A stretch of 64,000 nucleotides of DNA from an uncultured bacterium (GTDB lineage: Bacteria > Patescibacteriota > Minisyncoccia > Phycocordibacterales > GWA1-40-21). Shown in pieces: positions 11,667 through 28,859 of this stretch. The translations under genes and the position numbers were made by a program. The notes beneath the pieces were generated by a model that saw only the letters and a program-made list of their open reading frames with translations, was not told the origin of the DNA and searched no databases. The number at the start of each line of letters is the position of its first letter. Position 1 is the stretch's first letter. The DNA lies in assembly GCA_903822075.1 (NCBI GenBank), contig CAIJNK010000008.1, positions 21,961 to 85,960 on the forward strand, written 5' to 3'.

Positions 11667-11717
11667 CACCTGCGCCGGATTGTTCTGAAATTATTTCAGA
11701 TTGATCCGGTGCAGGTG
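11667..11717 (+). other. long near-perfect hairpin A in HHR1-downstream leader
   Basis: Arms cacctgcgccggat / atccggtgcaggtg with one G·U pair, plus an inner tctgaaat/atttcaga stem. Confidence 0.5.
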
Positions 11718-12068
11718 TGCGCAGACACCCTAGCATGTATGTGCGGTCCCTAAACTCATCAACTTGACATCCTAGGTTGGGTTGGGTATAGGGCTACCGA
11801 CAATTCTTTCACCTCAGGAAAAGTTTTCCTGTTGCCGAAGGAGGGCATGACCAAACTTCGTTTACCGACGAAGCGCCTTCTGGAAAGAATACGGGGTGTG
11901 TAACCGACAGAAGGAGCAAATTGCCTCTTTCTAAACGGGCGGTGCCGTTCGCTTACACATTTCATGGATATAGGGGCCTTTACTCCGGTCAGGGGTCAAG
12001 GTTAGTAAAGTCCAGCTGCGCAATTTTTCAAACATTAACCATAGACAAAACTCAACGAAAGGGAATAA

Positions 12069-12365
12069 ATGAGTACCAGTTATGGTCACGCAACAGTCGC
12101 TTTCCCGGGATTTCCACCAGTCACGGGAAACACGGTAAATGACCGGGTCCTCTTTGCGAATTATCACTGGGGGTATAAAGTTGAATCCTTTCTTCCAGTG
12201 AGAACTCTAAAGTTCGCCGACGGTACGAAACGCCGCCTCTCCAAAAAAGAGCGCAGCCGCTTACTCACACTTTCTCGAAAGTGGAACAAGCACGGCCAGT
12301 GGGATTATACCCAAAATAAACGCCACCGGCCGTTTCGAACCATCGAAGAGGTGAACGACTACTAG
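12069..12365 (+). CDS. hypothetical protein (weakly supported)
   Basis: 98-aa ORF between HHR1 and HHR2; weak SD. Confidence 0.3.
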   Translation: MSTSYGHATVAFPGFPPVTGNTVNDRVLFANYHWGYKVESFLPVRTLKFADGTKRRLSKKERSRLLTLSRKWNKHGQWDYTQNKRHRPFRTIEEVNDY

Positions 12366-12527
12366 CTTCCGGGAGATCTGAGAGACAGATCGCCATGAAC
12401 CGGACGAGGTAGAGAAAACTACCTTTGGAACAGAAGCGACTACGGGCACATCACTCTACATAATGTCCCGAAAGTAAAATCCGTGAAAAAAATCACGTTA
12501 ATCATCCGAATACGCAAGGTATTCGGG

Positions 12528-12578
12528 TCTGTCTCACGATGTGTGTCGTGACTGATGAGCTCAAAAGAGCGAAACAGA
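12528..12578 (+). ncRNA. hammerhead ribozyme motif HHR2
   Basis: GUC triplet; stem I tcacga-tgtgtg-tcgtga; CUGAUGA; stem II gctc-aaaa-gagc; GAAAC; 5-bp stem III; preceded by the 8-bp hairpin ccgaatac/gtattcgg. Confidence 0.8.
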
Positions 12579-12602
12579 AAAGATCTTTGAGAATAAATAT
12601 TT

Positions 12603-12665
12603 GTCCTGCGTCTAGATTAGAAATTATTACCTGATTTTTAATCTAGACGCAGGACTCTTGCAGGG
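12603..12665 (+). other. 17-bp perfect-stem hairpin B downstream of HHR2
   Basis: gtcctgcgtctagatta … taatctagacgcaggac with a 29-nt AU-rich loop. Confidence 0.55.
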
Positions 12666-12909
12666 GTTGGACGTCTTTTGTTCACCGGTTTTCGCGAGCC
12701 GGTAACCGAATAGTATAAGGTTCGGAGCAGAGATCAGTCTCTGATAGGGGCAATGGGTCACCCTCAACCTGCACGACATAGAGATGCCGATAGTTCAAGC
12801 CTGATGTGAAGATTGTGTGGCTCCATTGTGGGCCCCAGCTTTACAAAAACGGTTTGATCATCTCTCGAGAGGGTAGCATTATGTCTGACCAACATTCTGC
12901 CCCCTCTCG

Positions 12910-12977
12910 TTTCTGTACGGGAGTATGTTCTCTCGCTGATGAGTCCTTCGCTTAGGCGTTCAGGATGAAACAGAAAA
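12910..12977 (+). ncRNA. hammerhead ribozyme motif HHR3
   Basis: GUA triplet; stem I cgggag-tatgtt-ctctcg; CUGAUGA; stem II gtcc…ggat; GAAAC; 7-bp stem III; the 12912-12986 stretch is identical to the HHR4 copy. Confidence 0.8.
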
Positions 12978-13002
12978 GATCTTTCAAACAAAGGGAGCTA
13001 AT

Positions 13003-13584
13003 ATGTTTTCAAGCAAAATCGGCAAAGGCAAGTTGTCAGTGAAAAAAGAATTCGCTGTCACCCTGCCCAAGGAGGCCAAGAAGTGGGATGACTACCGGTC
13101 GGAGATCGTGGAAGCTTTCCATACCTTGGGTGGAGTGCGGGGGATCATGGGCGTGACCGGTCTGCGTCAGACTCAGGCGTATTTACTGGCGGCGAAATTT
13201 GGATTGATTATCGAAAAAGCCGTCCGAAGGAACAGCCAAGTTTACGCCAGACGACGGATGAACAACCTCGAGCACTTAAGAAATGTTTGGGGCTGGCGGC
13301 CGGGGGATGACACAGTAACTTTGAAAAATGGGCGACACTATGCCGCTAACCGCAGTTTTATGGCTGGCAGATCGCATTTCAAAGAAGGTGAAGTCTTCGT
13401 CCAGTACTCTCTGCCTACAGGGAAAGTCCGCGAGTATTTGCTGGCTCACGGAGTTAAATGGTGGATTGCCGGAGTGGAAATGGTTCCAGTCGATGCGGTC
13501 AAAGGAGAGGGGGCCTCTCTTTCCATGAAACTGGAGACTTCGCATTTTGCCAAGGTTGATTGTCAACCCATAAAACAATCTTGA
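13003..13584 (+). CDS. hypothetical protein (island 1)
   Basis: 193 aa; SD AAAGGGAG; lies immediately downstream of HHR3; GC-rich codon usage. Confidence 0.55.
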   Translation: MFSSKIGKGKLSVKKEFAVTLPKEAKKWDDYRSEIVEAFHTLGGVRGIMGVTGLRQTQAYLLAAKFGLIIEKAVRRNSQVYARRRMNNLEHLRNVWGWRPGDDTVTLKNGRHYAANRSFMAGRSHFKEGEVFVQYSLPTGKVREYLLAHGVKWWIAGVEMVPVDAVKGEGASLSMKLETSHFAKVDCQPIKQS

Positions 13585-13611
13585 GTTCCAGATACTCAAA
13601 AATAAAATCTG

Positions 13612-13675
13612 TCTGTACGGGAGTATGTTCTCTCGCTGATGAGTCCTTCGCTTAGGCGTTCAGGATGAAACAGAA
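13612..13675 (+). ncRNA. hammerhead ribozyme motif HHR4
   Basis: Exact repeat of the HHR3 core (13612-13686 matches 12912-12986). Confidence 0.8.
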
Positions 13676-13723
13676 AAGATCTTTCGGGAAAATTAGAAAC
13701 AAAACAGCAGAAGGAGAGAAGCT

Positions 13724-14014
13724 ATGCCTAAGATTAAGTTCTCGTCGAATTTCTTGCAGGAACGCCGGATCCGTCTTGGCTTTGAACCCTGCGAGGTAGC
13801 GAGGCTGGTGGGAGTCAAGCTCGATACTTACCGACAGTGGGAATGCCGCGGGGAAATCCCCGAGAAACATCTGCCACAGTTGGCCGCCGCGCTTCAGATT
13901 CCGGAGAACGAACTGAAGGCCGAGAAGGTGGCAGTGCTGGTGGAGGCGATGTTGGGAATCCCTCGGCAGGAAACCCACGGCTTCATCAACCGAATGTTGC
14001 GCGGAAATGCGTAG
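13724..14014 (+). CDS. HTH (XRE-like) domain protein
   Basis: SD AAGGAGAG; LGFEPCEVARLVGVKLDTYRQWE helix-turn-helix; 96 aa. Confidence 0.5.
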   Translation: MPKIKFSSNFLQERRIRLGFEPCEVARLVGVKLDTYRQWECRGEIPEKHLPQLAAALQIPENELKAEKVAVLVEAMLGIPRQETHGFINRMLRGNA

Positions 14015-14026
14015 CCGGATAACACC

Positions 14027-14053
14027 CCCCGAGCAGAAATGCTCGGGGTTTTC
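14027..14053 (+). terminator. rho-independent terminator closing island 1
   Basis: Stem ccccgagc / gctcgggg followed by TTTT. Confidence 0.55.
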
Positions 14054-14090
14054 TATACGAAAAAAGTTTGGAGTGTGCTAGACTTGAAAG

Positions 14091-15659
14091 ATGAAAGCCT
14101 CGAGATTATTTTTTCAGAAAAGAAATATTTTTGTCTTGGCCTCTTTTATTGCCGGTTTTTCTTTGATGACAGTAGAACTGACTGCTTCCCGGATAATTGC
14201 CCCACTGATTGGTAGTTCTATTTTTACCTGGACCGCCGTCATTGGAGTCATACTCTTAGGCTTGGCCATCGGCAGTTACTTGGGCGGAAAAATCTCGGAT
14301 AAATATTCTGATAAACCTATTCTTGGCTTGACTTTTATTTCCGCCTCCATCACGGTCTTTATTGTGAACTACCTGGCCGCCCACACCCTCTGGCTAATAA
14401 ACAATCTTAATTCAATCGGGGTTCTGTCACTAATTTTAGTGTCCTATCTTTTTTTAATGCCGGCAATTATTCTTGGCGGAATCCAACCAATTATCTTGAA
14501 AGAATACGCCAAAGATTTTTCCCACATCGGCGCTGAATACGGCCTTTTATCCTCGTCCTGGTCTTTGGGGAGTATTTTGGGGGTATTTCTGACCGGTTTT
14601 TTTCTTATTTCTTACGTGGGTAGCGCGGAGACAATTTTTCTTATCTCCCTAACCCTGGCCATCCTGGCTTTAGTTTTCTGCATTATTGGAAAAAACAAGG
14701 ATTTAATTTATCTGTCTGCCATTATGATTTTATTTATAGTTACAGCTCTGGCTATCCAGGCCGGAATAAAAATCTCGGACAAGAATATCCTGTTTGAAAA
14801 AGAAACGGCCTATTACAAGGCCAGAGTAGTTGATTTTAATTATCCGGGTGTGGGTCAGACGAGAGGTTTTTTTTTAGACTTTGATTCTCACAGTCTGGAA
14901 ACAAAAAATACCATCCCAAATTTCTACACGGAAATATACCCAGCTTTTAGTGTCTTTAAGAATGATTTAAAAAATATTTTAGTAATCGGCGGTGGTGCCT
15001 ACACCTTGCCAAAAAATCTGGCAAGCTTTTATTCTGACTCAAGTGTAAAAGTGTGGGAGATAGATCCCGCAGTGCCAAAGCTTGCCGAAAAGTACTTTAA
15101 CCTCAATCCGCAGAAGATACACACCACGATCGGGGACGCCCGCTACCTGATAAAAAAAGACAAAGCAACCTACGACCTAATTTATGGTGATGCTTATAAC
15201 TCTTTCATCTCCGTCCCCGGCCATCTATTGACCAAAGAGTGGAATACCGAAGTCAAAAACCATCTTTCGAGTGGCGGAATATACGCGATTAATTTTATTG
15301 GCTCTCTCACGGGAGAAAAATCTATTTTATTCAAAAGCATCCTGAACACTTTTACCCAAACTTTTGGCAACTATTATATTTTTTCTTTTGGCAACAGCCC
15401 AGAAGAAATCCAAAGTATCACCATCTTGGGCGTGAATGACAATATTAAAAGAAACGGAACAGACTTGGTAGAAATACTCGGTCGGGGAATGAATCCGTTT
15501 TTAGCCCAAAAGTTAATTAGCGAACCGCAAAAATATCTCGATCCTAGAGCCATAATTTTGACCGATGATTATTACCCGACGGAGAGATTAATGTTGCCGG
15601 TAGTTACGGATTATTTTCCCAAGTTTGTCTCTTTTACAAAAAACGTCTTCGGTAATTAA
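14091..15659 (+). CDS. fused polytopic membrane domain / spermidine-synthase-like methyltransferase
   Basis: About 7 N-terminal TM helices; C-terminal VIGGGAYTL…DLIYGDAY aminopropyltransferase fold. Confidence 0.6.
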   Translation: MKASRLFFQKRNIFVLASFIAGFSLMTVELTASRIIAPLIGSSIFTWTAVIGVILLGLAIGSYLGGKISDKYSDKPILGLTFISASITVFIVNYLAAHTLWLINNLNSIGVLSLILVSYLFLMPAIILGGIQPIILKEYAKDFSHIGAEYGLLSSSWSLGSILGVFLTGFFLISYVGSAETIFLISLTLAILALVFCIIGKNKDLIYLSAIMILFIVTALAIQAGIKISDKNILFEKETAYYKARVVDFNYPGVGQTRGFFLDFDSHSLETKNTIPNFYTEIYPAFSVFKNDLKNILVIGGGAYTLPKNLASFYSDSSVKVWEIDPAVPKLAEKYFNLNPQKIHTTIGDARYLIKKDKATYDLIYGDAYNSFISVPGHLLTKEWNTEVKNHLSSGGIYAINFIGSLTGEKSILFKSILNTFTQTFGNYYIFSFGNSPEEIQSITILGVNDNIKRNGTDLVEILGRGMNPFLAQKLISEPQKYLDPRAIILTDDYYPTERLMLPVVTDYFPKFVSFTKNVFGN

Positions 15660-15678
15660 CTTCAACAACTCCAATAAT

Positions 15679-16443
15679 TTATTTGAGTTCCAACCAGACC
15701 GGACAATGATCAGAGCCGAAAATATTTTCGAGTATTTTAGCAGATTTGAGACGAGAAAGAAGGTTGGGGGAGATAAAAAAATAATCCAAACGCCAACCCA
15801 CATTCCGGTCCCGGGCAAAAGTCTTCATATCCCACCAGGAATATTTTACTTCGGTTGGGTACAGATAACGAAAAGTATCCACGTAACCGTTAGAAATAAC
15901 TTTATCCAACCAGTCCCGCTCGATTCGCAAAAAACCGGTATTCTCTTCGTTTTCTTTTGGCCGAGCCAAATCAATTTCATTGTGCGCCGTGTTCACGTCC
16001 CCGCAGAAGATCACCGAGAAACCTTTCTTTTGTAAATTCTCAATATAATTAAAAAATTCTTTGTAGAATTCCAGCTTGAAAGCCAAGCGTTCAGGCCCCC
16101 CACCACCGTTTGGAAAATAACAGGTGATAACCACCATCTTTCCGAAAAAAGCAGCCAGAAACCTTCCTTCTTGGTCTAAATCAAACTTACCCATAGCATC
16201 TTCCACCTTATCCGGCTTAATTTTGCTGTAAATAGCCACGCCGCTATAACCTTTACGCATTTTAGAATGATCAAAATAGGAAAAATAACCGGCTGGATGA
16301 CGCAGTTCTTCGGGCAAATCATCCGGGTGTGCTTTTGTTTCCTGCAAGCAGATAATGTCAGGGTCAAGCTCAAACAGCTGATTCCATTTATCTTTTTTAT
16401 ACACGGCCCGCAAACCATTTACGTTCCAGGATAAAAGTTTCAT
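15679..16443 (-). CDS. xth: exodeoxyribonuclease III
   Basis: MKLLSWNVNGLRA…QETK…GDVNTAHNEIDL…SDHCPV, the EEP nuclease signature. Confidence 0.85.
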   Translation of the reverse strand: MKLLSWNVNGLRAVYKKDKWNQLFELDPDIICLQETKAHPDDLPEELRHPAGYFSYFDHSKMRKGYSGVAIYSKIKPDKVEDAMGKFDLDQEGRFLAAFFGKMVVITCYFPNGGGGPERLAFKLEFYKEFFNYIENLQKKGFSVIFCGDVNTAHNEIDLARPKENEENTGFLRIERDWLDKVISNGYVDTFRYLYPTEVKYSWWDMKTFARDRNVGWRLDYFFISPNLLSRLKSAKILENIFGSDHCPVWLELK

Positions 16444-16465
16444 ACGTTAATAATAGCACAAATCC

Positions 16466-17467
16466 TTAGCCTTTATTATGAAACTTTTTGTGGATGTCGC
16501 GGAGGTGCTTGTCCGTCACATGGGTATAAATCTGGGTGGTCATGATGCTGGAGTGGCCAAGCATGCTTTGCACGGAGCGCAAATCTGCCCCATTACTAAG
16601 CAAATCAGTGGCAAAAACGTGCCGGATAACGTGGGGAGTGACTTTTTTGGTAATGCCAGCAATCGTCGCATAGCGTTTAACAATTCTTTCGATGGAGACA
16701 GTGGTCAGACCTTTGTTTATTTCCGCTCCGCCCCGAAGTTTGGCGGGCTTTCTTTGATATTCTCGCACTCCGCTCACGGGAACAAACAAAGCGTCAGACA
16801 TATCCTTACGTAGAGCCAAATATTGTCGGATGGCGTCTTTGGCTTCATCGGATAGAAAAACCACGCGGACTTTACCGCCTTTGCCCCGAATGGAAAATTC
16901 ATCCAGTTTTATATCCAAATCTCGGCCCAGGGAACACAGCTCGGCTACACGCAAGCCGGTAGAGAAAAGCAACTCTAAGATAGCCCGATCTCGGAAACGG
17001 CGTTCCGGATTTTCTTCCTGATTAGGCGCATCAAGCAAGCGCTGCAGCTCTTTTAGGGAAATCAGGTCAATGGAACGTTCACCCACTTTGGCTAATTCAA
17101 TATTATCGGCAGGGAGGGAAGTGACGCCTCGGCGCGCCAAGAACTTAAGAAAGACACGTAGGGCAATCAGGTAATAGTTCTGGGTTTTTCGGCTTAGGCT
17201 CCCACCGGCTTGCCCCTGCTCACCAAAGGAGTGATAAGCCTTGGCTCCAGGCCGCCGGTTCAGCCAGAGACGAAAGTCACGTACTTTTTCATTGGTAATA
17301 TCTTTGGGGTCAGTGAGCTTGGTCTGACTCAGGAATAAGCTCAGATAACGGTCGTACCGATCGACGGTTTTGAGCGCTCGCCCTTTTTCAATTTCAATAT
17401 ATTCCAGGAATCGAGTTTTGAGTTCATTCAAATTGTTACTCATGGTACTAATTATATCATGTTGCAC
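16466..17467 (-). CDS. tyrosine site-specific recombinase XerC/XerD-like
   Basis: C-terminal HVIRHVFATDLL…LGHSSIMTTQIYTHV catalytic R-H-R-Y motifs. Confidence 0.8.
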   Translation of the reverse strand: MQHDIISTMSNNLNELKTRFLEYIEIEKGRALKTVDRYDRYLSLFLSQTKLTDPKDITNEKVRDFRLWLNRRPGAKAYHSFGEQGQAGGSLSRKTQNYYLIALRVFLKFLARRGVTSLPADNIELAKVGERSIDLISLKELQRLLDAPNQEENPERRFRDRAILELLFSTGLRVAELCSLGRDLDIKLDEFSIRGKGGKVRVVFLSDEAKDAIRQYLALRKDMSDALFVPVSGVREYQRKPAKLRGGAEINKGLTTVSIERIVKRYATIAGITKKVTPHVIRHVFATDLLSNGADLRSVQSMLGHSSIMTTQIYTHVTDKHLRDIHKKFHNKG

Positions 17468-17535
17468 AATAATTTGTGTTTTTAAATTTTTAATGTGCTA
17501 TTATATAGAATATTATTAGAATAAATTAAAAATAT

Positions 17536-20028
17536 ATGACTATTGAAAGTTCTGCGCAAGGAACCGGTCCTCAACAAGAAACTCCGCCATCAGACGAGGC
17601 ATTACTCGGTGTGCCTAACAAAGGAAAGAGGAAGCTTCGCCTTGCAAGCGCGGCCGCGGCAGAGACTGCTCAAAATCCAGGTTCAACTGATGACACGTTA
17701 GCTAGGGCGCTGGAAGATCTTGCTCAACCAAAAGATGTGACACAGGCTCCGCCACCGGCGGCCGAACCGGTAAGAGTTGGCACCGAACAAAAGGAGAATC
17801 CTTTGGATATTCTAGCCGGTATCAGCCAGGAACAAACAGTCGCCGGTATACTAGAGCGCGTGCGGAAAGCTTATGACAATGAGAAAAAAGAAGAAGACAG
17901 AAGCTATTATACGCTCATCCTGGATACATTGGAGCAAATCAACAAGAAAGTTGGCGATCCGAAGGTAAAAATAGCGGCAGACCTTATCGATAGGCTCTCT
18001 GAAAGTTACGGGTTAAGAGAAACCGTTGTAAAGATCCTGAAACAGGAGAGAAAATATAAGGAGGCAGCGCCAATCAAAGAAAAAACAGACCGGCGGGGGG
18101 AGCAAAAAGAAACGGACGTGGAAAGTTTAAATAAAATCAAAGACGCAAAAAGTATGGCGGAGATAATCACCTTGGTAGAACAAGCTGGCGGATTAATAGA
18201 TGACCAAGGTACGTTCTCAGAAGTACCAATGCGTAAGGGTTACCTGCAAAATGTTGAACATGACGCTTCGATTTATTCCAAAGCCAAGGAAGCTGGGACA
18301 GAACAAACACCGGAAATAGCCCAAATCAAGAAAGAGTTGCTGTTTTTATTAGGCCAATTACCTGAAAAATATAGTCTGAAAGCAAAAGTAATTGAGATAT
18401 TGGGATTAGGAGAACTTGTCTCCCCTCAAAAGAAAGGAAGGGTTGAGGAACCGGGAGAAGCTGAAAGAAAGCAAGCCGAGGCTACTCCTGAACCGGTGAC
18501 GGCTGAAGCGGTATTGGCTTTTATCAATCAATCACCGGACAACATGAGTGTCCGCGCAATTATGAGTAAATTCGGCGCCGATGAAGATACCGCCAAAGAA
18601 TATTTGAAAAAATCCTTGGGGGTGGAGACAAAAAAAGAAGGGGCGGAAGAAACCACCGGAGAGACAAGAGCACAAGAGGAAGAAACTCCCGAAGAAAGCA
18701 CCGCCGAAAAAATAGATCTCGCTGACGACAAGATTGAAGGTTTAAACAAAGCTTTTGATACGCCCGGTTTCCTAGAATTTCTGGCAAAAAATCCGGATAA
18801 GAAATTTGATATTGAGGATACCAACAACGCTGAGGCGATACTGAAAATGTACGAGGCCTTCCAAGTCAAAGAACAAGTTTCTAAAGGACTCAAAGGAATA
18901 GTTATTGAGGGCCTGAATGATGTGGTGGGAGTGGGAGACGCCGAATCAGTCTCTTGCCTTGATGATTATTTGAACTCTAAAAATTATGAGGATCCAGAAA
19001 TACTACTAGCACACAAGAAACAATTAGATACTCTGGTAGACGGAAGGAATGAGATTGCCCAATTACAGGAACAAGTGAAGGAAATAACCGCCAGCCTGCC
19101 ATTAGGAAAAGTGACTACCCCCGAAGAGGCCGACCTCGAAGCTTTATATACCCCGATTGACGCCAGCTTTATCGGCCCCGTCGGACGAAAGATTCTCTCT
19201 CAGTTTGCTTCAACCGGAAAAATATTTGAAATAATGAAGGAGGACTCCGCAAAAGACTCTGGCAGTGGACGGATTTGGCGCGATATTTACCGCGGCGGGG
19301 TTATAGGACTAAAACTCTTTTTTGCCGATGTTCCTTATGCTCTCTATCAATTAACCAGGATCCGCTCTGCTGAAAATGTAAAAAATAAGGAAGAAGCACG
19401 GGGTAAAATCGAGAAGATCACCGGCGAAAAATATTCCAGTGCCTCGGTTGGAAAATTTTTGGAAAAAATGCTGGAACAAAAGGAAAAATCTGCGCAAATT
19501 GGAGCGCTTGACGGAAAAATTGGTGGCGAAACTTTTATTTATGAAATATTTAAGGAGAGACTGGCCGCTGAGCTGATGAAGATAGAAGGTATTTCCGAGG
19601 GGGCCGGCCAGACGATCAAAAAAACCATCCGAAATGTCTTGTCCAACAAAAACTTTGATTTGAGCTCGACGGAAAAAGCGCAAGACCTGTTGGAGAAAGC
19701 AGAAAGAGCAGTGGCGCAAGGTGACGGTTTAAGTTTCTTGGGTGAGGACGAACTGGCAGTGCTGCAGGCAGAAATTGATAAGCGAGCCCAGGAGATTGTT
19801 CTGGCTCAGATTAAGAATGCTTTTGAACTTAACAAAAAAACCAAGGGTCCATTTACTAATATTGAAAAAGCTCTAAAAGGGATCCTGGAAAAAACAAGAA
19901 TAGGTTCGAAGGAGGGGGATGGGGTTAGAAAAACAATAAAAGAAGCTTTGGTCGAAGTGGCAAAAAGATGTAATGATCCGGTCATCAGTATTAAAGCTAA
20001 GGCATTCATATTAACTAATAAATTGTAA
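17536..20028 (+). CDS. large acidic coiled-coil hypothetical protein
   Basis: 830-aa K/E-rich ORF with an uninterrupted reading frame. Confidence 0.5.
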   Translation: MTIESSAQGTGPQQETPPSDEALLGVPNKGKRKLRLASAAAAETAQNPGSTDDTLARALEDLAQPKDVTQAPPPAAEPVRVGTEQKENPLDILAGISQEQTVAGILERVRKAYDNEKKEEDRSYYTLILDTLEQINKKVGDPKVKIAADLIDRLSESYGLRETVVKILKQERKYKEAAPIKEKTDRRGEQKETDVESLNKIKDAKSMAEIITLVEQAGGLIDDQGTFSEVPMRKGYLQNVEHDASIYSKAKEAGTEQTPEIAQIKKELLFLLGQLPEKYSLKAKVIEILGLGELVSPQKKGRVEEPGEAERKQAEATPEPVTAEAVLAFINQSPDNMSVRAIMSKFGADEDTAKEYLKKSLGVETKKEGAEETTGETRAQEEETPEESTAEKIDLADDKIEGLNKAFDTPGFLEFLAKNPDKKFDIEDTNNAEAILKMYEAFQVKEQVSKGLKGIVIEGLNDVVGVGDAESVSCLDDYLNSKNYEDPEILLAHKKQLDTLVDGRNEIAQLQEQVKEITASLPLGKVTTPEEADLEALYTPIDASFIGPVGRKILSQFASTGKIFEIMKEDSAKDSGSGRIWRDIYRGGVIGLKLFFADVPYALYQLTRIRSAENVKNKEEARGKIEKITGEKYSSASVGKFLEKMLEQKEKSAQIGALDGKIGGETFIYEIFKERLAAELMKIEGISEGAGQTIKKTIRNVLSNKNFDLSSTEKAQDLLEKAERAVAQGDGLSFLGEDELAVLQAEIDKRAQEIVLAQIKNAFELNKKTKGPFTNIEKALKGILEKTRIGSKEGDGVRKTIKEALVEVAKRCNDPVISIKAKAFILTNKL

Positions 20029-20687: not shown

Positions 20688-21209
20688 ATGTTAATTAAAC
20701 ACAAAGATCAAAGAGTTGGTATTTTTATCGATACTCAGAATCTATATCATTGCGCCAAGAATTTATACGGTGCCAAGGTTAATTTTGCTCAAGTAGTCAA
20801 AGAAGCATTGGCCGAACGCTCGCTAATCAGAGCTATTGCCTATGTTATTACCACCGAAAGTGGTGATGAAAAAAGCTTTTTTGAAGCCTTAACCAAGGCG
20901 GGGATAGAAACCAAAACCAAAGACTTGCAAATATTTGCCGGTGGTGCCAAAAAGGCGGACTGGGATGTTGGTCTGGCCGTGGACGCCATTAAAATGGCGC
21001 CCAAGCTTGATACTGTCATCATAGTTTCCGGTGATGGGGATTTTGTTCCGCTCGTGGAGTACTTAAAGATGAACGAAGGTTGCCAGGTAGAAGCTATCTG
21101 CTTCGGTAAGAGTTCGTCCGCCAAACTGATTGAAGCGGTGGATGGTTTTATGGATTTAGATATCAATCCCAGAAAATATCTTTTAGGACCGGTAGGAGTG
21201 AGGAGGTAG
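20688..21209 (+). CDS. NYN-domain (LabA-like) protein
   Basis: VGIFIDTQNLY…VSGDGDF acidic residues typical of NYN nucleases. Confidence 0.65.
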   Translation: MLIKHKDQRVGIFIDTQNLYHCAKNLYGAKVNFAQVVKEALAERSLIRAIAYVITTESGDEKSFFEALTKAGIETKTKDLQIFAGGAKKADWDVGLAVDAIKMAPKLDTVIIVSGDGDFVPLVEYLKMNEGCQVEAICFGKSSSAKLIEAVDGFMDLDINPRKYLLGPVGVRR

Positions 21210-21881: not shown

Positions 21882-21916
21882 GTCGGGCACGCGGTGTACC
21901 CGACCTGTTTTTTTTA
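21882..21916 (+). terminator. rho-independent terminator
   Basis: gtcgggcac…gtacccgac stem followed by T8. Confidence 0.55.
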
Positions 21917-22085: not shown

Positions 22086-24203
22086 ATGATTAAAAGAGAG
22101 TTTTCAATGGAGCTTAACGGCAAGAAATTGACCGCGGAGTTCAACGACCTAGTAGAAAATGCACATGGTTCCTGTTTATTAAGATATGGCAACACGGTGA
22201 TTTTGGCCACCGCCGTTATAAGTAAGGATGAGATTAGTAAAGATTATTTGCCTTTGACCGTAGACTATGAAGAAAAGTTTTACGCTTCCGGTCAAATTCT
22301 GGGCAGTCGTTTTATGAAAAGGGAAGGTAAGCCGTCTGATGAGGCCATCTTAACTGGCCGCGTAGTGGACCGTACCATTCGTCCACTCTTTGATCAGTGG
22401 ATACGGAATGAGATGCAAGTGGTAATAACCATTCTTTCCATTGATGAGGATGATCCGGATGTACTTGGTGTTGTCGCCGCCTCCCTCGCTCTTGGCGTGT
22501 CCAAGATTCCTTTCCATGGCCCGGTCTCCGCGGTCAGAATTGGCAAGCACAAGACGGACGGCTTTGAGATAAACCCAACCTATACCGAAAGAGAAAATGA
22601 AAATTTTGAAATCGACTTAATTGCCTGCGGTAAAGATGGAAACATAAACATGATCGAACTTGGTGGTGATGAAGCCCAGGAAAACGTGATTATGGAGGCA
22701 ATGAAAAAGGCGTCAGAGGAAATTGAAAAAATAAATGCTTGGCAGAAAACGGTTATCGCCGAAATTGGCGTGCCAAAGATTTCTCTGCCAGCTCCAGTCA
22801 TGCCTGAAGAAATAAAAGATCTTTTCACTTCTGAAATTGAACCAAAACTAGAAAACTACGTAATGAGCGGTATCCCTGGCGGCTCAAAAATAGGGGAGAT
22901 CATGGATATCTGGATGCAGCTGGCTGCCGAAAAATATCCAGAAGTAAAATCTTCTTTTTCGGAACATTTATTCGAGGAAAAAGTGGACGCCTTGATTCAC
23001 GAGCAAGTTTTGAAAAATAACAAACGAGCTGACGGCCGAGGCATTGATGAGATTCGTCCTTTGTTTGCCCAGGCCGGTGGCATTTCCCCAATCTTGCACG
23101 GTTCCGGTATCTTCTACCGCGGCGGTACCCACATCCTGACCGCTTTGACTTTAGGCGGCCCGTCTGACGCCCAGATAATTGATGGGATGGAAGAAAGCAC
23201 GGAAGCCAAAAGATTTATGCATCATTACAACTTCCCACCGTACTCTACGGGTGAGACCGGTAAGATGGGTGGTACAAATAGAAGAATGATCGGTCACGGC
23301 GCCTTAGCCGAAAAAGCTTTACTGCCAATGATCCCAAAGAATTCCGTTTTCCCTTATACCGTTAGACTCGTCTCGGAAGCCATGTCCTCAAACGGTTCTA
23401 CTTCTATGGGTTCCGTCTGCGCCTCCACCATCGCTTTGATGGATGGTGGCGTGCCAATCAAAGCTCCAGTCGCCGGTATCGCTTCGGGTCTCATGATGGA
23501 TGATAAAGGTAATTACAAAGTACTCACTGATATTCAAGGACCAGAAGATCATTACGGTGATATGGATTTTAAAGTGGCCGGAACAAAGAACGGTGTGACC
23601 GCCATCCAAATGGACGTAAAAGTCAGCGGTGTACCGATTCCTGCTTTAGCGGAAGCTTTTGAAAAAGCAAAAATAGCCAGACTAAAAATCTTGGATGTTA
23701 TCTTGGCCGCCATTCCGGAAGTACGAAAAGATATTTCCGTCAACGCGCCAAAAATCTTAGTGTTAAAAATTCGACCAGACCAGATTGGCGGAGTGATTGG
23801 TTCTGGTGGAAAAATTATTAAAGAAATAAAAGAAAAGACCGGGGCCGATATTGATATTGAAGATGATGGCACGGTTTATTGTACCGGTAAGAATGGTTCG
23901 GCCGAAAAAGCCAAAGCGGTGATTGAAGCTTTAACCCACGAATACAAGCCAGGTGAAAGATATGAGGGTGTTGTCACCAAGATTGCGGACTTTGGTGCCT
24001 TTGTCCGCCTGCAAGGTGATACTGAAGGATTGGTTCACGTTTCCGAGATTGCGCCGTTCAGAGTTGACGTAGTTGGTTCAATCTTAAAAGTTGGTGATAA
24101 AGTACCCGTAATAGTTAAGGAGGTTGACCCGGAAAGAGGTCGTGTCAGTCTGTCTATCAAATTGGCGGATCCAGACTGGGCTAAGAGAAAGATGGGAAAA
24201 TAA
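22086..24203 (+). CDS. pnp: polynucleotide phosphorylase
   Basis: Two RNase PH domains plus C-terminal KH and S1 domains (KIADFGAFVRL…GLVHVSEI); 705 aa. Confidence 0.9.
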   Translation: MIKREFSMELNGKKLTAEFNDLVENAHGSCLLRYGNTVILATAVISKDEISKDYLPLTVDYEEKFYASGQILGSRFMKREGKPSDEAILTGRVVDRTIRPLFDQWIRNEMQVVITILSIDEDDPDVLGVVAASLALGVSKIPFHGPVSAVRIGKHKTDGFEINPTYTERENENFEIDLIACGKDGNINMIELGGDEAQENVIMEAMKKASEEIEKINAWQKTVIAEIGVPKISLPAPVMPEEIKDLFTSEIEPKLENYVMSGIPGGSKIGEIMDIWMQLAAEKYPEVKSSFSEHLFEEKVDALIHEQVLKNNKRADGRGIDEIRPLFAQAGGISPILHGSGIFYRGGTHILTALTLGGPSDAQIIDGMEESTEAKRFMHHYNFPPYSTGETGKMGGTNRRMIGHGALAEKALLPMIPKNSVFPYTVRLVSEAMSSNGSTSMGSVCASTIALMDGGVPIKAPVAGIASGLMMDDKGNYKVLTDIQGPEDHYGDMDFKVAGTKNGVTAIQMDVKVSGVPIPALAEAFEKAKIARLKILDVILAAIPEVRKDISVNAPKILVLKIRPDQIGGVIGSGGKIIKEIKEKTGADIDIEDDGTVYCTGKNGSAEKAKAVIEALTHEYKPGERYEGVVTKIADFGAFVRLQGDTEGLVHVSEIAPFRVDVVGSILKVGDKVPVIVKEVDPERGRVSLSIKLADPDWAKRKMGK

Positions 24204-24218
24204 AATAATTCAAATTAA

Positions 24219-24247
24219 AAAACCTCCGGAACTTCCTGAGGTTTTTT
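24219..24247 (+). terminator. rho-independent terminator after pnp
   Basis: aacctc…gaggtt stem plus TTTTTT. Confidence 0.6.
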
Positions 24248-24251
24248 AAAT

Positions 24252-25424
24252 CTATTGATGGAAATAAAAGGCCACGGCCATAATGAAATAAGCCACTAAG
24301 AGCTGAGCGCCTTCAAACCAATTACTCTCACCGTCTTCAATAATAGAGTTAACAATAAAGACTGAGAAGATGATAGCTACCAGCTCAAATGTGTTGAAGA
24401 CTAGATTCATTTGATTCTGGAAAAATAAACTAATCAAAACTAAGACTGGGGCCACGAGCATAATGATTTGTGTGGCTGAGCCAATAGATATCTGCAAAGC
24501 TAAGTCCATTTTCCCTTTGATGGCTACAGTAATGGCCGAAGTATGCTCGGCAACGTTACCAATAATGGCCACAAAAATCACACCAATAAATAATTCCGTC
24601 CAACCAAAACTGGCCACCAAGGGCTCGATGGAGCCGACTAATACCCTGCTCATAAAAGCAACGGCGATGGTGGACAAAGCTAGGATGAAGATACTTCTGG
24701 AGATACTCCAACGGCCATCGTATTTCCCAACATCCTCCGTGTATAAATGCTTATGAGTATAAAGGGAAAAAAATAAGCTAGCCAAATAAACACCGATCAT
24801 CAAAAAGGAAACGGAGATACTCAGCTTCTCAACCACAACCGAAGGAGCGGTAGTTGAGGTAACGAGAAAAACCGCGGGAATAACTAACGCAACCATCGCC
24901 AATAACAAGGTGGAGCCGCTGGCTTTGGCAGCGGTAGCGTTAAAGGTTTGTTTTTCTTTTTTCAGACCACCAAAGAAAATAGCTGAACCAAGGACTAGAA
25001 GCAAATTGCCGATAATCGATCCGGTAATGGAAGCTTTCACAACCTCGATCAAACCGGATTGCAAGGCAAAGATACCGATAATGAGTTCTGTAGCGTTACC
25101 AAAAGAGGCATTCAAAAAGCCACCGAGCGCTGGGCCGGTGTAGACCGCTAACTCTTCAGTGGCTTCCCCGATAAACTTGGCTAGAGGAATAATAGCCAAA
25201 GCTGACAGGATAAACAAAGTAAGAGGTGAAGCATGCCGAACTTCTGCAATGACCGTAATAGGGATGAATAATAAAAGAAATGAAAAAATCTTATCTATCA
25301 TAAATTTAATTAAAACTGATAATATTCCAAATTGTAACACAAATACAACAATAAAGTAGAAGACTGCGGACAGCCATGTTATACTGAAGGTCAGATATGC
25401 CTCCCACTGAAAATAAAAACCCAA
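24252..25424 (-). CDS. Ca2+/cation antiporter (CaCA family)
   Basis: Paired alpha-repeats GNATELIIG and GNVAEHTSAI; the true start may be the Met at 25301. Confidence 0.7.
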   Translation of the reverse strand: MGFYFQWEAYLTFSITWLSAVFYFIVVFVLQFGILSVLIKFMIDKIFSFLLLFIPITVIAEVRHASPLTLFILSALAIIPLAKFIGEATEELAVYTGPALGGFLNASFGNATELIIGIFALQSGLIEVVKASITGSIIGNLLLVLGSAIFFGGLKKEKQTFNATAAKASGSTLLLAMVALVIPAVFLVTSTTAPSVVVEKLSISVSFLMIGVYLASLFFSLYTHKHLYTEDVGKYDGRWSISRSIFILALSTIAVAFMSRVLVGSIEPLVASFGWTELFIGVIFVAIIGNVAEHTSAITVAIKGKMDLALQISIGSATQIIMLVAPVLVLISLFFQNQMNLVFNTFELVAIIFSVFIVNSIIEDGESNWFEGAQLLVAYFIMAVAFYFHQ

Positions 25425-26530
25425 ATAACCAAAGTTTTGAGCCCATTAAGGTGGGGATTGACCCAGTCTTCAAAGGCACCAATTCCTACCAAAATATTCC
25501 AGGCCAAAGCCCCGTAACTCCGATTGGCGGAGCTTTTGGCGTCTTAAATAACCAAAGATATAACCCTTCGCAATCGCCAATAACTTTAGGAGTAAAAGAA
25601 CCTAGCACAACTTCAGCCGTCCCGAAATCAATAGTTCGAACATTCAAAGGCGACATTGAGTCGGCTATTGAGAATAACCATTTGAACTCAATTAATATCG
25701 CCTTGGCCGAAAAGGAAAAAATGCGCGGGGAAATCAAAGCTGCAGAAGGAGAAGTGGGAGAAGAATCATCGACAGCAGCCGCCAAAAATGGCTATTCAAA
25801 AAGTAAAATAGCGGTTTTTCTCAGTGTGATCTTGATTATCGCAGGGGCGGCCGGTTTAACACTCCTTTATCTGACAAAAAAACAGGACAGCATTCCGGTG
25901 TCGCAAACCCAGGAATTACCGTCCTTAATTACAGCCGAATACAAAGATGAAATTGATACCAGCCGCATCGCCAAAGACAAATTTGCGGCAGCGTTGAGTA
26001 GTAAGCTAAATGACACTGTAATCCCAACTGACAATCTTTATAATTTATACGTGACGGCGGCTTCCGGCACAGAAAAAAGATTACTCACCTCGACCGAATT
26101 TACAACTTTATTAGGCTTTAAAATTCCCGATATTGTAAAAAGAAGCCTAGAACCTGACTTTATGGTCGGGATGTATTACGTGGACAAAAGCTTACCTTTT
26201 GTTATTTTAAAAACTTCCTATTTTGAAAATGCTTTTGCGGGAATGCTCTCCTGGGAAACGAGTCTGGAGAGAGACTTTCGGCTATTATTTGAACTGCCAG
26301 GTTATGAAAACGCCAATACTCTAGAAACTACTTTAGCTACAGCCGAGCAGGATAAATTTGAAGATACAGTGATTGTTAACAAAGACGTCCGGCAACTTCG
26401 AGATGCAACCGGAAATGTAATTCTCCTATATAGTATAGTCGACAAAGAAACGATAATCATTACCGTTAATGATATCGCTTTTAAAGAAATAATTAATCGC
26501 CTAAATAAGGAAAAGGGGATGCAGAGATAA
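25397..26530 (+). CDS. hypothetical membrane-anchored protein
   Basis: 377-aa ORF with one TM helix; its 5' end overlaps the antiporter ORF, so the start is uncertain. Confidence 0.4.
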   Translation: MPPTENKNPNNQSFEPIKVGIDPVFKGTNSYQNIPGQSPVTPIGGAFGVLNNQRYNPSQSPITLGVKEPSTTSAVPKSIVRTFKGDIESAIENNHLNSINIALAEKEKMRGEIKAAEGEVGEESSTAAAKNGYSKSKIAVFLSVILIIAGAAGLTLLYLTKKQDSIPVSQTQELPSLITAEYKDEIDTSRIAKDKFAAALSSKLNDTVIPTDNLYNLYVTAASGTEKRLLTSTEFTTLLGFKIPDIVKRSLEPDFMVGMYYVDKSLPFVILKTSYFENAFAGMLSWETSLERDFRLLFELPGYENANTLETTLATAEQDKFEDTVIVNKDVRQLRDATGNVILLYSIVDKETIIITVNDIAFKEIINRLNKEKGMQR

Positions 26531-26537
26531 ATACTGC

Positions 26538-27269
26538 TTAGCCTAATTTCTCATAGAAAGTTTGGAATATTTGCTTTTGGAACTCGGCGATCCTCTTACT
26601 CTCAATAATCATGACCGTTTCCGTATTGTAATCGATAAAAGCGACTTTATTACCATAGATTATCTCAGTAACATTATGTTCAAAAGGACCAAAATCGTTC
26701 GGCATAATTTTTGCAAAGCGATCCAGGCTTGGTCTTTTGTGCACTGCCGTCTGGGCGTTAGTAATCACTTCTCGCTGTAATTTCTTTTCGTCACGCATTT
26801 GACGATAAATCCTGGGCACATATTTATCTTTTTTTTCATTACCGTCCTTGTTTGAACTGTAACGGTAAAAGACATCCCCTTTTTTAAGACTGCGCACCAC
26901 ATCATCAAAAATTCTTTTAGTTCCATCTCTTCCTTCAAGAAATCTGATCTTCGGTTTTTTCTCACTGCTATTATAGGCGTCCTCCATGTCCGGCAGGATT
27001 TCAAAAAAATCAATTCGTAAATCGTCAAAAAGAGTTTCTAATCGATTGGGTGGTTCAGCGCCATAAACTACACTTTTTATTTTTTGCGTTTTAGTGACTA
27101 GTTTTTTTTCCATGAGGGAGGGTAGGGCCTTGTAAACCAGGGGACGATGGATTGAAGTTTTTTCGGAAATTTGGGAGATATTGGAGGTTCCCATCTCCAG
27201 CAAAGCCAGGTAAATGGCACTTTCATGCTTAGTCAGGCCTATTTTCTCCAAAATCTTGTTTTTATCCAT
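26538..27269 (-). CDS. TrmB-like transcriptional regulator (paralog 3)
   Basis: HTH LEKIGLTKHESAIYLALL; divergently oriented from island 2. Confidence 0.6.
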   Translation of the reverse strand: MDKNKILEKIGLTKHESAIYLALLEMGTSNISQISEKTSIHRPLVYKALPSLMEKKLVTKTQKIKSVVYGAEPPNRLETLFDDLRIDFFEILPDMEDAYNSSEKKPKIRFLEGRDGTKRIFDDVVRSLKKGDVFYRYSSNKDGNEKKDKYVPRIYRQMRDEKKLQREVITNAQTAVHKRPSLDRFAKIMPNDFGPFEHNVTEIIYGNKVAFIDYNTETVMIIESKRIAEFQKQIFQTFYEKLG

Positions 27270-27569
27270 ATATTTAGTTATTTTTGCTGTAATTTTAGCT
27301 TACATAGAGTATAGATAAATATCTTCAAAAAATCAAGTATTTAAGGTATTTAATATACCTTTTCTTGATTATCTATTCTTAATGTAATAATTAGTTACAT
27401 TTTTAATCAGCAAGGATTGTTGATACATAAGGGTTATTTGGGATTTAGCCAATAAACATTACATGACATTGAGCAAATTCAAGCAAGAGTTCTCCCTTTA
27501 ATATATGCTGTTCCGAGACCAAGAACGGCACTTCGAGAAGATAAACCAACCAAACAGGAGGGAACGAGG

Positions 27570-27869
27570 ATGAACAGCCCCATCATGAGTCGATACCAGG
27601 CTTGGCGTGAGGACAGAAACGCTCGAATTGCTTTCCTGATGCTAAGGAAACAGTGGGCCAGAAACTTACTAAGGGAGGCGGCACTGACCGAACCCGGACA
27701 GGAGACTGAAGCCGAGTTCCGGGGAGCAGTCTACCGGGTCTGGATTGGCCCGCGAGGCGGAGTCAGAATCCACCAAACAAGAGTACTGCCAAAACCCCTG
27801 CCGCCGGCAACGCTGCCAAAAACTGAAAATCTGCCCATGCTCGCCGCCTTTCAAAGGGTTGGGCTATAA
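27570..27869 (+). CDS. hypothetical protein (first gene of island 2)
   Basis: SD ACAGGAGGGAACGAGG; GC-rich; 99 aa. Confidence 0.45.
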   Translation: MNSPIMSRYQAWREDRNARIAFLMLRKQWARNLLREAALTEPGQETEAEFRGAVYRVWIGPRGGVRIHQTRVLPKPLPPATLPKTENLPMLAAFQRVGL

Positions 27870-27898
27870 ACAACGGCGGGGATTAGGAACCCCCGCCT

Positions 27899-27960
27899 TC
27901 CGTCGCCAAGTGAAACTTGGCCTGATGAGTCCTTCACTTAGACGTTCAGGACGAAACGGA
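27899..27960 (+). ncRNA. hammerhead ribozyme motif HHR5
   Basis: GUC; stem I gccaag-tgaaa-cttggc; CUGAUGA; stem II as in HHR1; GAAAC; 5-bp stem III; preceded by the hairpin ggcgggg/ccccgcc. Confidence 0.8.
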
Positions 27961-27999
27961 TAAAGGTCGAAAGATTATCAAAATAACTAAAAATAAATA

Positions 28000-28371
28000 A
28001 TGCTCAAAAAAGTAAAAACATTGAGAACGCCGGCGTCGCATGCGGAATACGAACGCTACCAAAAAACGCCAAAGTTCCCGGCTTGTTACATCTGCACGGC
28101 CAAGACGATAAAAACTTATGAGAAATGGAAGATGATTGAAAACGAGTTTCCTTACAACGAAATAGCCACGAAAAACGACATGATTGTCCCGATCAGGCAC
28201 ACCACTGAAAACGACTTGACGGAGGAAGAACTAAGGGAGTTTACAAAGATAAAAGAAGACATCAACGACAAATACGACATGATTCTGGAAAATACCCACA
28301 AACAAAAATCCATCCCCGGGCACTTCCACTTGCACCTCTTACAAATAAAAGAGCGGGAAATTGAAATTTAA
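28000..28371 (+). CDS. HIT-family (histidine triad)-like protein
   Basis: HFHLHLL histidine-triad motif; N-terminal CYIC. Confidence 0.5.
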   Translation: MLKKVKTLRTPASHAEYERYQKTPKFPACYICTAKTIKTYEKWKMIENEFPYNEIATKNDMIVPIRHTTENDLTEEELREFTKIKEDINDKYDMILENTHKQKSIPGHFHLHLLQIKEREIEI

Positions 28372-28400
28372 CGGCCGAGAGGCTGTTTTTTAGACCCAAA

Positions 28401-28450
28401 CTGTCTCGGAATGTGTATTCCGGCTGATGATTCCGAAAGGATGAAACAGG
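28401..28450 (+). ncRNA. hammerhead-like motif HHR6 (variant, U·U at 10.1/11.1)
   Basis: GUC; stem I cggaat-gtgt-attccg; CUGAUGA; stem II ttcc-gaaa-ggat; GAAAC; 4-bp stem III. The conserved G10.1-C11.1 pair is replaced by U/U, so it may be inactive. Confidence 0.5.
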
Positions 28451-28478
28451 TAAGTTCATTAACAACAGGAGATATAAA

Positions 28479-28700
28479 ATGTCGTGCCCAGTATGCGGAA
28501 GAGTCTTATGTGATCACTCGCCGGATGAACGTGGACAATCCTACGAGGGGATGATGGCAGATATGGATAATGATACACGCCGAATACAAGGCGGGGGTGG
28601 CTTATTGGGGCCAGCAACACCATTTCATCCAAACAGCTTCAATCCTCGTAGAGATTTACCTCCAGGGGAACGACCAGCTGACTGGGGGTTACGAGATTGA
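28479..28700 (+). CDS. small Cys-containing hypothetical protein
   Basis: SD AGGAG 9 nt upstream; MSCPVCG…C. Confidence 0.35.
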   Translation: MSCPVCGRVLCDHSPDERGQSYEGMMADMDNDTRRIQGGGGLLGPATPFHPNSFNPRRDLPPGERPADWGLRD

Positions 28701-28732
28701 CAATACACCCCGCATCTTAATTGATGCGGGTA

Positions 28733-28782
28733 CTGTCCGAGAGTGTGTACTCTCGCTGATGAGTCCAAAAGGACGAAACGGA
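28733..28782 (+). ncRNA. hammerhead ribozyme motif HHR7
   Basis: GUC; stem I cgagagt-gtgt-actctcg; CUGAUGA; stem II gtcc-aaaa-ggac; GAAAC; preceded by the hairpin cccgcatc/gatgcggg. Confidence 0.8.
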
Positions 28783-28798
28783 AAAGTTCTTTGAAAAA

Positions 28799-28859
28799 GT
28801 TGCCAAGAGATTTGAGAACTTGATTTGTGATTAATTGATTTTTCAAATCTCTTGGCAAC
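28799..28859 (+). other. 17-bp perfect-stem hairpin C in 5' leader of REC-domain gene
   Basis: gttgccaagagatttga … tcaaatctcttggcaac with a 27-nt AU-rich loop. Confidence 0.55.

Follow-up and report, generated by a model that had tools for sequence, protein, structure and literature searches.

A portable 5' leader module of Patescibacteria couples ribozymes or promoters to a conserved linker and a bipartite RNA helix of about 24 bp

Three long hairpins, designated A, B and C, follow type III hammerhead ribozymes on the plus strand of a 64-kb stretch of Patescibacteria DNA (contig CAIJNK010000008.1, the whole of which is called the window here), and we conclude with high confidence that they are sense-strand RNA helices of about 24 bp belonging to a portable 5' leader module of this bacterial group. 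The order of the module, in which we place equally great trust, is a self-cleaving ribozyme or promoter, a linker of the form AAGWUCUUU(GA), an A-rich spacer and a bipartite helix. Such a ribozyme-linker-hairpin leader has apparently not been described so far, and it probably controls the processing, stabilisation or translation of the cut RNA. The window itself is chromosomal, as it carries dnaA, dnaN, yidC, jag and the genes for PNPase, the CCA-adding enzyme, UvrD and ComM.

Results

Structure of hairpins A, B and C

The RNA minimum free energies (MFE) of the plus strand were -39.1, -37.7 and -32.9 kcal/mol for A, B and C, corresponding to z-scores of -8.8, -9.7 and -9.1 against 200 dinucleotide shuffles, none of which folded equally well. 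A first-pass annotation of this DNA had judged the three hairpins to be too perfect for chance, and these values bear it out. The reverse strand is 7 kcal/mol less stable in each case, because several of the pairs are G.U. The same annotation rightly described long stems, but the dimensions it gave (14-17 bp, with loops of 19-29 nt) have to be revised, as most of the presumed loop nucleotides are paired, leaving helices of 24-26 bp with loops of 3-7 nt (Table 1); hairpin B ends at 12655 and not at 12665. The distance from the GAAAC of the hammerhead core to the start of the hairpin is 28 nt for A, 27 nt for B and 19 nt for C; the hairpins lie 75-95 nt from the predicted ribozyme-made end.

Table 1. 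Coordinates of the leader modules and of the RNAs headed by hairpins A and B in the window
Feature	Start	End	Strand	Description
Type III hammerhead upstream of A	11576	11642	+	39.6 bits, GUC triplet; predicted cleavage after C11583
Linker GAAAAGATCTTTGA and A-rich spacer before A	11639	11665	+	exact match
Hairpin A	11666	11718	+	17 bp, 1x1 mismatch, 7 bp (24 bp); 3-nt loop
Rest of A-RNA	11719	12021	+	conserved structured domain; 17 compensatory pairs from 3 sequences
Type III hammerhead upstream of B	12526	12580	+	core match, stems I and II; predicted cleavage after C12533
Linker GAAAAGATCTTTGA and A-rich spacer before B	12577	12602	+	exact match
Hairpin B	12603	12655	+	24 contiguous bp; 5-nt loop
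Rest of B-RNA	12656	12917	+	ends at the predicted cleavage site of the next hammerhead (after A12917)
Type III hammerhead upstream of C	28730	28784	+	41.6 bits, E=1.2e-5; predicted cleavage after C28737
Linker GAAAAGTTCTTTGA and A-rich spacer before C	28781	28798	+	exact match
Hairpin C	28799	28859	+	20 bp, 1x1 mismatch, 6 bp (26 bp); 7-nt loop

The arms of the three hairpins show no mutual similarity and have no second copy within the 64-kb window at up to four mismatches, in agreement with the earlier statement that the stems share an architecture and no sequence. The 9-mer GAAATTATT reported as common to A and B is indeed present in both, but its description as a motif went too far: it is located in the paired apical stem and is not kept among the homologues of A, while AGAAATTA is kept among those of B. 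It is probably explained by an apex rich in A and U, and not by a motif common to both hairpins. According to sequence inspection, the remaining strong plus-strand inverted repeats of the window adjoin T-runs or a tRNA gene, or form an operator-like palindrome pair. Matches of the hairpins to microRNA families (MIR5185, mir-2160 and others) were rejected as generic long-hairpin matches in a bacterium, with scores of 37.3 bits against a gathering score of 101.7 and of 25.9 against 70.

Two further observations concern hairpin C. An open reading frame (ORF) of 14 codons (28837-28896) begins with a TTG 8 nt inside the 3' arm, and its TGA stop codon overlaps the start codon of the downstream 479-aa gene in the sequence ATGA; C-type homologues do not preserve this ORF, which is probably a coincidence. 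Moreover, the public metagenome contigs L042 and L043 begin at about window position 28835 and hence break within the hairpin, which is probably an assembler artefact at an inverted repeat; hairpins of this type may often be lost at contig ends.

Conservation and covariation in relatives

Homologous loci (numbered with the prefix L) were gathered either by the ribozyme-plus-linker pattern or by a neighbouring protein. The hammerhead-plus-linker pattern was found at 16 genome loci, two of which look like chance hits, and at 24 metagenome loci, with none among 2.9 million viral contigs. Ten of the 16 genome loci lie in metagenome-assembled genomes (MAGs) named as Saccharibacteria, Paceibacterota, Taylor-, Nomura- or Vogelbacteria or as 'Patescibacteria group', so that the search for the same architecture beside hammerheads of related genomes, recommended by the first-pass annotation, was successful in Patescibacteria MAGs and in metagenomes. 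Several of these loci are syntenic with the window, with protein identities of 45-89% for the genes of a 98-aa protein, a helix-turn-helix protein, a 123-aa protein, the 479-aa protein and a glycosyltransferase. A phage origin was considered and rejected, as megablast gave no match among 50,697 phage records and the pattern was absent from the viral contigs mentioned above.

All three hairpin families covary. In the A-type family, compensatory changes were found at 15 of 23 pairs (11 sequences) and 89% of cells were paired (7 sequences), a value matched by none of 500 shuffles. The B-type family (6 sequences) had 97% paired cells and 9 compensatory pairs out of 25, again with no shuffle out of 500 reaching the observed values, and the C-type family (5 sequences) had 98% paired cells and 12 of 25 compensatory pairs. 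Across the three families, zero or one of 500 shuffles matched the observation for four measures out of five, and the number of additional pair types lacked significance in the A and C families. As a control, sliding the 3' partner by 1-3 columns reduced pairing to 31-54%. Within families, mid-helix motifs are conserved, namely UUURAG/UUYAAA in the C-type and AGAAAUUA/UGAUUUUU in the B-type, and G.U positions are kept as well.

For a test independent of the pattern, loci were selected through the 98-aa protein encoded downstream of A, which has only eight relatives among 5.8 billion proteins. Hairpin A and its conserved leader were kept in all eight distinct loci of this family with enough upstream DNA, at protein identities down to 45%. 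Hairpin C is distributed more patchily. Besides the window, L028 (70% identity) and L051 (54% identity) have it, the copy in L051 following a TTGACA-17-TATACT promoter and the linker AAGTTCTTTGA.

General properties of the module

Module statistics were derived from 41 curated, non-redundant hairpins of the fetched loci. Their helices were delineated individually, and pair counts from 125-nt MFE folds were dropped, as shuffled sequences also gave long imperfect hairpins. Although the stem sequences are unrelated, helix length is 21-27 bp in 40 of the 41 hairpins, with a mode of 23, and the hairpin spans 50-61 nt in 39. Bulges are absent, and the only interruptions are 1x1 mismatches, which occur from bp 13-14 onward. 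Counted from the base, bp 1-12 contain approximately 45% G-C pairs and nearly no G.U pairs or mismatches, whereas from bp 13-14 onward the G-C content is approximately 15-25% and G.U pairs are frequent, resulting in a sharp shift of all three properties at bp 12/13. In total, 111 G.U pairs stand against 14 A/C 1x1 mismatches, and the sense strand is the more stable one in most hairpins. This excess of G.U over A/C shows that selection acts on the sense-strand RNA.

A linker resembling (A)GWTCTTT and an A-rich spacer are present within approximately 40 nt upstream of nearly all 41 hairpins, and the element in front of the linker is a type III hammerhead, a twister-P1 ribozyme, a conserved stem-loop or a sigma70-like promoter. 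The link to hammerheads proposed earlier therefore holds at A, B and C, but it is not exclusive in relatives. Twister-P1 matches were obtained in L044 (627-687, 58.9 bits), L001 (1714-1785, 50.6 bits) and L036 (5173-5238, minus strand, 36.7 bits); in L044 and L001 the twister replaces the hammerhead before the long hairpin, and the L044 site is orthologous to that of hairpin A. In L030, L004 and L013, the ribozyme position before the linker is held by a stem-loop, ACTTYAT-TGAGTTC-hairpin-GRATTCA-TARAGT, located at approximately 1520-1587 and 2720-2783 (minus-strand coordinates) in L030, at approximately 4415-4483 (minus) in L004 and at two sites in L013. This stem-loop had no Rfam match at E<0.05 and could be a further self-cleaving or processing element. 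A sigma70-like promoter precedes the linker in L028, L030 and L051, and the transcript would start at the linker there. In the pooled loci, the 130 nt that follow a hammerhead are at least 10-fold enriched in long hairpins, with 30 of them in 10.3 kb versus 163 in approximately 589 kb. Still, only about 40-55% of the hammerheads in relatives, and three of nine in the window, are followed by a linker hairpin.

Start codons in relatives

Fourteen related hairpins have the ATG of a long ORF within their 3' arm, at a distance of 7-11 nt (mostly 8 nt) from the 3' end of the helix. A crude motif test scored a motif resembling a Shine-Dalgarno (SD) sequence at one of these buried-AUG sites, compared to 17 of 27 units without hairpin. 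Several other relatives have an SD that begins 0-2 nt past the helix (L010 and, twice, L018). Both arrangements occur with one homologous small membrane protein (GSPQR motif), the AUG of which is buried in L001 and follows the hairpin and AAGGAG in L018. With the ATG buried or the SD directly behind it, the helix is placed at the boundary of the translation start region. Judging from the predicted pairing, the helix of the buried-AUG class must be removed or opened before translation starts. The suggestion of translational control in the first-pass annotation is hence supported by relatives, in which SD-less starts are buried 7-11 nt from the helix base, and not by A, B and C themselves. Internal promoters within fold-back arms were considered as well and rejected, as neither ribozyme island of the window (see below) has promoter-like sites and, on inspection, the -10-like hexamers in the buried-AUG arms of relatives are too near to the AUG.

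RNAs and genes headed by the hairpins

Hairpins A and B are the first helices (P1) of two conserved structured non-coding RNAs, termed A-RNA, a leader of about 360 nt for the 98-aa gene, and B-RNA, of about 320 nt. Directly abutting hairpin A, a long-range helix closes A-RNA (GCGCAG at 11719-11724 with CTGCGC at 12016-12021) and covaries to ACGCAG/CTGCGT in L044 and to CCGCAG/CTGCGG in L011; blocks of A-RNA recur in four further protein-selected loci, and the RNA is followed by the 98-aa gene at 12069-12365. B-RNA contains the covarying helices GGAGA/CATCTCC, CGAGAGG/CCTCTCG and CCGG/CTAG around ttttcgcgag, is bounded on both sides by hammerheads in all five homologues, and the predicted excised unit extends from 12534 to 12917. 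An Rfam scan found no family match for either RNA, and short ORFs within or after the hairpins and within both RNAs showed no in-frame conservation. We regard A-RNA and B-RNA as two new structured RNAs. The earlier idea that the hairpins are parts of ribozyme-released small RNAs is thus retained for A and B with regard to release, but at this size the RNAs are not small.

Hairpin C is located in a 5' untranslated region (UTR), its 3' end being 33 nt ahead of the ATG at 28893 of the 479-aa gene. This gene, also called in public contigs, encodes a response-regulator-like product with a C-terminal receiver-like domain.

Upstream hammerheads, linker and ribozyme islands

On the plus strand of the window, nine type III hammerhead cores were found, compared to 0.29 expected by chance. 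Hammerheads of this type are defined by a CUGAUGA...GAAA core, an NUH cleavage triplet, closed stems I and II and an open stem III; the triplets of the nine sites are GUC or GUA, and the stems are present. Their scores with the Rfam model Hammerhead_3 (RF00008) range from 23.8 to 45.3 bits, with E values down to 1e-6, and none of the nine is recovered at the gathering score of 48.5; tRNAs alone passed the gathering scores of the Rfam scan. We read these hammerheads, which are predicted to self-cleave, as a divergent subfamily rather than as non-members. The copy upstream of A has its stem I at 11584-11601, and the 23.8 bits of the copy upstream of B refer to 12540-12580. The exact linker GAAAAGWTCTTTGA occurs in the window solely at sites A, B and C. 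A role of the linker as an anti-16S or self-dimer site was rejected, since no convincing complementarity was seen in the sequence.

The nine hammerheads fall into two plus-strand islands (11576-13676 and 27897-31765), and each has a GC-rich hairpin without T-tract on its upstream side. Promoter-like sites are absent from both islands, with 1.7 expected, which is consistent with long transcripts that the ribozymes cut. Near-identical copies of hammerhead and linker at 12910-12976 and 13610-13676 form direct repeats around a 193-aa ORF (13003-13584). As the stem III strands are similar from unit to unit, any excised unit could re-form a hammerhead, and, by this pairing, excised units could do so from their own ends and perhaps circularise. 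Genes for an NYN-domain (PIN-like) nuclease (20688-21209) and for PNPase (22086-24203) sit between the two islands.

Discussion

Possible function as a double-strand-specific processing site

The length and geometry of the helix suggest a processing or gating site of measured length for double-stranded RNA (dsRNA), of the RNase III type, a reading that we put forward tentatively and as somewhat short of probable. RNase III or protein recognition sites were among the suggestions of the first-pass annotation. Once the predicted hammerhead has cut a polycistronic transcript, the downstream RNA set free by it carries the helix as its earliest strong fold. On the reading proposed here, a dsRNA reader, most likely an enzyme of the RNase III type, would sense the length of this helix, approximately two turns. 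By cutting about halfway along it, the enzyme would detach ribozyme and linker and create the mature 5' end, and this would determine how stable and how translatable each ribozyme-released unit is. In relatives with an SD-less AUG at about bp 8, such a cut would leave 2-3 nt before the AUG and create a near-leaderless, translatable mRNA. A dsRNA-specific reader is suggested by the two-turn length, the uninterrupted A-form geometry, the sequence independence and the need to unmask start codons; A, B and C provide 24, 24 and 26 bp, where RNase III substrates are continuous A-form dsRNA of at least about 20 bp.

There are precedents for processing of this kind in other bacteria and in phages. By cleaving long 5' UTR hairpins, RNase III activates or stabilises E. 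coli adhE, S. aureus cspA and lambda N, and hairpins of approximately 22 bp serve as punctuation in the early mRNAs of T7. These leader and polycistronic hairpins (T7 R1.1-R5, lambda N, adhE, cspA) resemble the module in their length of about 22-26 bp, equivalent to two turns, in their location in 5' UTRs or between cistrons and in their sequence independence, and they can unmask a start or alter stability as well as punctuate operon transcripts. The module differs in being bipartite and coupled to a ribozyme and a linker, and its cleavage site is a predicted one. Furthermore, internal loops of the T7 sites limit cleavage to one strand, whereas the module helix is nearly perfectly paired. For bacteria of the candidate phyla radiation (CPR), intervening sequences of the RNase III type have been inferred in 23S rRNA (PMC11270868).

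Several points weigh against processing by a dsRNA-specific reader. No RNase III signature motif or Pfam match was present in the 64-kb window and the fetched loci, which are a small part of each genome. In the window, neither an SD nor a start codon is covered by A, B or C. The GC-mixed lower duplex of 12 bp would tend to remain annealed after a cut, so that unmasking of the AUG would not be automatic. Hairpin A is stacked on a long-range helix and B is likewise integrated into its RNA, an arrangement that would suit an architectural or protective P1 better than a disposable cleavage site. With regard to the helix statistics, the lower edge of the length distribution is partly set by the selection threshold of at least 16 bp, and the enrichment of G.U pairs in the upper half could merely serve to avoid perfect DNA palindromes. 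Finally, hairpin C is missing in L049 (71% identity), L013 (50%) and L052-L055 (47-51%). Homologous loci lacking the hairpins or compensatory changes had been named by the first-pass annotation as what would refute it; this objection fails for A and B, while C, by comparison of these loci, is gained and lost and hence dispensable on an evolutionary time scale.

Alternative explanations

The main rival, which we consider less plausible but a serious contender, is a 5' stabiliser combined with an architectural P1. After the ribozyme cut, to which an endonuclease may add a second one within the A/U-rich linker, degradation from the 5' side would halt at the base of the very stable helix, which would thereby cap and protect the mature RNA, and the helix would clamp the folds of A-RNA and B-RNA. 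This accounts well for A and B, which are integral first helices of structured RNAs, and it agrees with the 5'-proximal position of the helix behind a conserved single-stranded A/U-rich linker and with the lower 12 bp being its most stable part. The SD 0-2 nt past the helix in L010 and L018 also resembles known 5' stabilisers, an SD directly after the helix being the arrangement in aprE and in cggR-gapA processing. However, known stabilisers (ompA, aprE, ermC, cggR-gapA), which likewise are strong 5'-proximal hairpins of operon transcripts and sometimes lie right before the SD, have 5-12 bp and must lie at the very 5' end, whereas the helices here are about 24 bp long and located 75-95 nt from the ribozyme-made end, and their constant length of 21-27 bp without bulges is left unexplained. 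Moreover, hammerhead stem I already pairs the new 5' end, SD-less AUGs at about bp 8 would remain occluded permanently, and RNases J and Y are not established in these genomes, neither having turned up in the window, where no search was aimed at them. Alternatively, the helix might be a binding platform for a dedicated protein or a trans-acting RNA, acting as a translational operator, localisation signal or toehold. A single-stranded conserved motif beside a helix of fixed length is typical of ribonucleoprotein sites, and the retention of mid-helix motifs and G.U positions within the B-type and C-type families would fit as well. We nevertheless regard this as improbable, given that the stem sequences differ wholly between families, that no plausible RNA complementary to the arms or the linker was found within the window and that a candidate protein is lacking, the proteins of the islands having no informative Pfam, NCBIfam, PHROG or PADLOC matches. 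Fold-back sequestration of start sites in IS10/IS200 transposase mRNAs, in mRNAs of type I toxins such as tisB and zorO and in synthetic toehold switches is similar insofar as the 5' arm of the relatives' hairpins is antisense to the AUG region and a single-stranded leader lies upstream; A, B and C differ from these systems by having no internal promoter, no covered start and no trans trigger found in the window.

The position immediately beside hammerheads or twisters invites a comparison with the synthetic insulator RiboJ, a hammerhead with a 23-nt hairpin, in which the hairpin shields ribozyme folding from downstream sequence and standardises the 5' UTR context. As in the module, a type III hammerhead precedes a hairpin within about 20 nt, on the 3' product and before the ribosome-binding site (RBS), and leaving the 3' arm of A unpaired disturbed the predicted hammerhead fold in silico. 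The module, in contrast, is natural, has a helix twice as long, occurs at some ribozyme sites only and sometimes contains the start codon in its helix, whereas RiboJ exposes the RBS. We consider insulation distinctly improbable, as linker and hairpin also follow plain promoters without ribozyme (L028, L030, L051), inserts of 39-90 nt are tolerated between ribozyme and hairpin, roughly half or more of the hammerheads, including six of nine in the window, do without a hairpin, and 24 bp are not required for this purpose; deletion of the whole hairpin also left the predicted hammerhead fold of A and C unchanged, which as an MFE result is weak evidence. An element acting at the DNA level (a palindromic protein site, a recombination site similar to attC, MITE or REP sequences, or a cruciform) would be in line with long inverted repeats, with the breaks of public assemblies in hairpin C and with an integrase-family gene at 16466-17467. 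Such an element is very improbable in view of the strand asymmetry in G.U pairs and mismatches, with a sense strand that is usually several kcal/mol more stable, and of orthologous, conserved positions in gene orientation; the arms are unique in the window, the stems differ by site without forming a repeat family, and the extrahelical or bulged bases expected of attC are absent. Slightest of all is the probability of an intrinsic terminator or attenuator on either strand, for which the strength of the hairpins and the T-rich runs after A and C on the minus strand could be cited. The first-pass annotation had already argued against ordinary terminators, and a terminator scan called none of the three; its remark that two of them lack a T-tract needs correction, since on the plus strand all three do. 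Intrinsic terminators have a GC-rich stem of about 5-14 bp with a U-tract directly behind it on the transcribed strand. No convergent minus-strand genes end at the hairpins, the minus-strand folds are weaker, and the stems are far longer than those of the window's terminators. In addition, the conserved downstream RNA and genes have no promoter of their own, which requires read-through through the hairpins.

Relation to ribozyme operons and significance

Clusters of hammerheads flanking genes are known from prophages, for which the processing of polycistronic RNA was proposed (Perreault et al. 2011, PMC3088659). Such operons with clustered hammerheads or twisters resemble the islands described here in that several same-strand ribozymes flank single genes, and their proposed role is to generate units of different stability or translation (PMC3088659, PMC6765202). 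The islands differ by their location on a Patescibacteria chromosome, with no match in the viral contigs. Targeted word searches of both papers brought up no downstream linker or hairpin module, and we found no literature linking hammerhead or other self-cleaving ribozymes with Patescibacteria. Standard annotation overlooks the module as well, since none of the nine hammerheads reaches the gathering score of the Rfam model.

What most genomic hammerhead and twister ribozymes of bacteria do is an acknowledged open question (PMC6765202, PMC3088659). The module offers a concrete, testable architecture for it, in which ribozyme cleavage is coupled to a linker that is conserved and to a helix whose length is fixed. 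The helix is placed where RNA stability and translation are decided, and in relatives it visibly hides start codons. Furthermore, the module occurs widely among Patescibacteria, a very large group about which little is understood, and represents a natural counterpart of synthetic RiboJ and of ribozyme-flanked RNAs. Genetics has recently become feasible for Saccharibacteria (PMC10633639).

More speculatively, and in our estimation rather unlikely in its entirety, the module may be part of a 'punctuation grammar' of Patescibacteria, in which interchangeable self-cleaving elements, the AAGWUCUUU linker and a bipartite 24-bp helix would license or gate the released RNA. This grammar would include A-RNA, B-RNA, a B unit with ends that could rebuild the hammerhead and circularise, and the SD-less genes with an AUG at about bp 8, whose mRNAs would turn near-leaderless only upon a double-strand-specific cut.

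Two minor observations concern other features of the loci. The palindrome AGGTCACAATTTGTGACCT occurs twice at 37461-37535, at the 5' end of an ORF6N/Rha-like gene (37337-37819), and is operator-like. In L044, a stretch of 69 nt (2386-2454) matches the tmRNA model at its two termini (71 bits) but lacks the 310 positions between them, which corresponds to a stand-alone tRNA-like domain.

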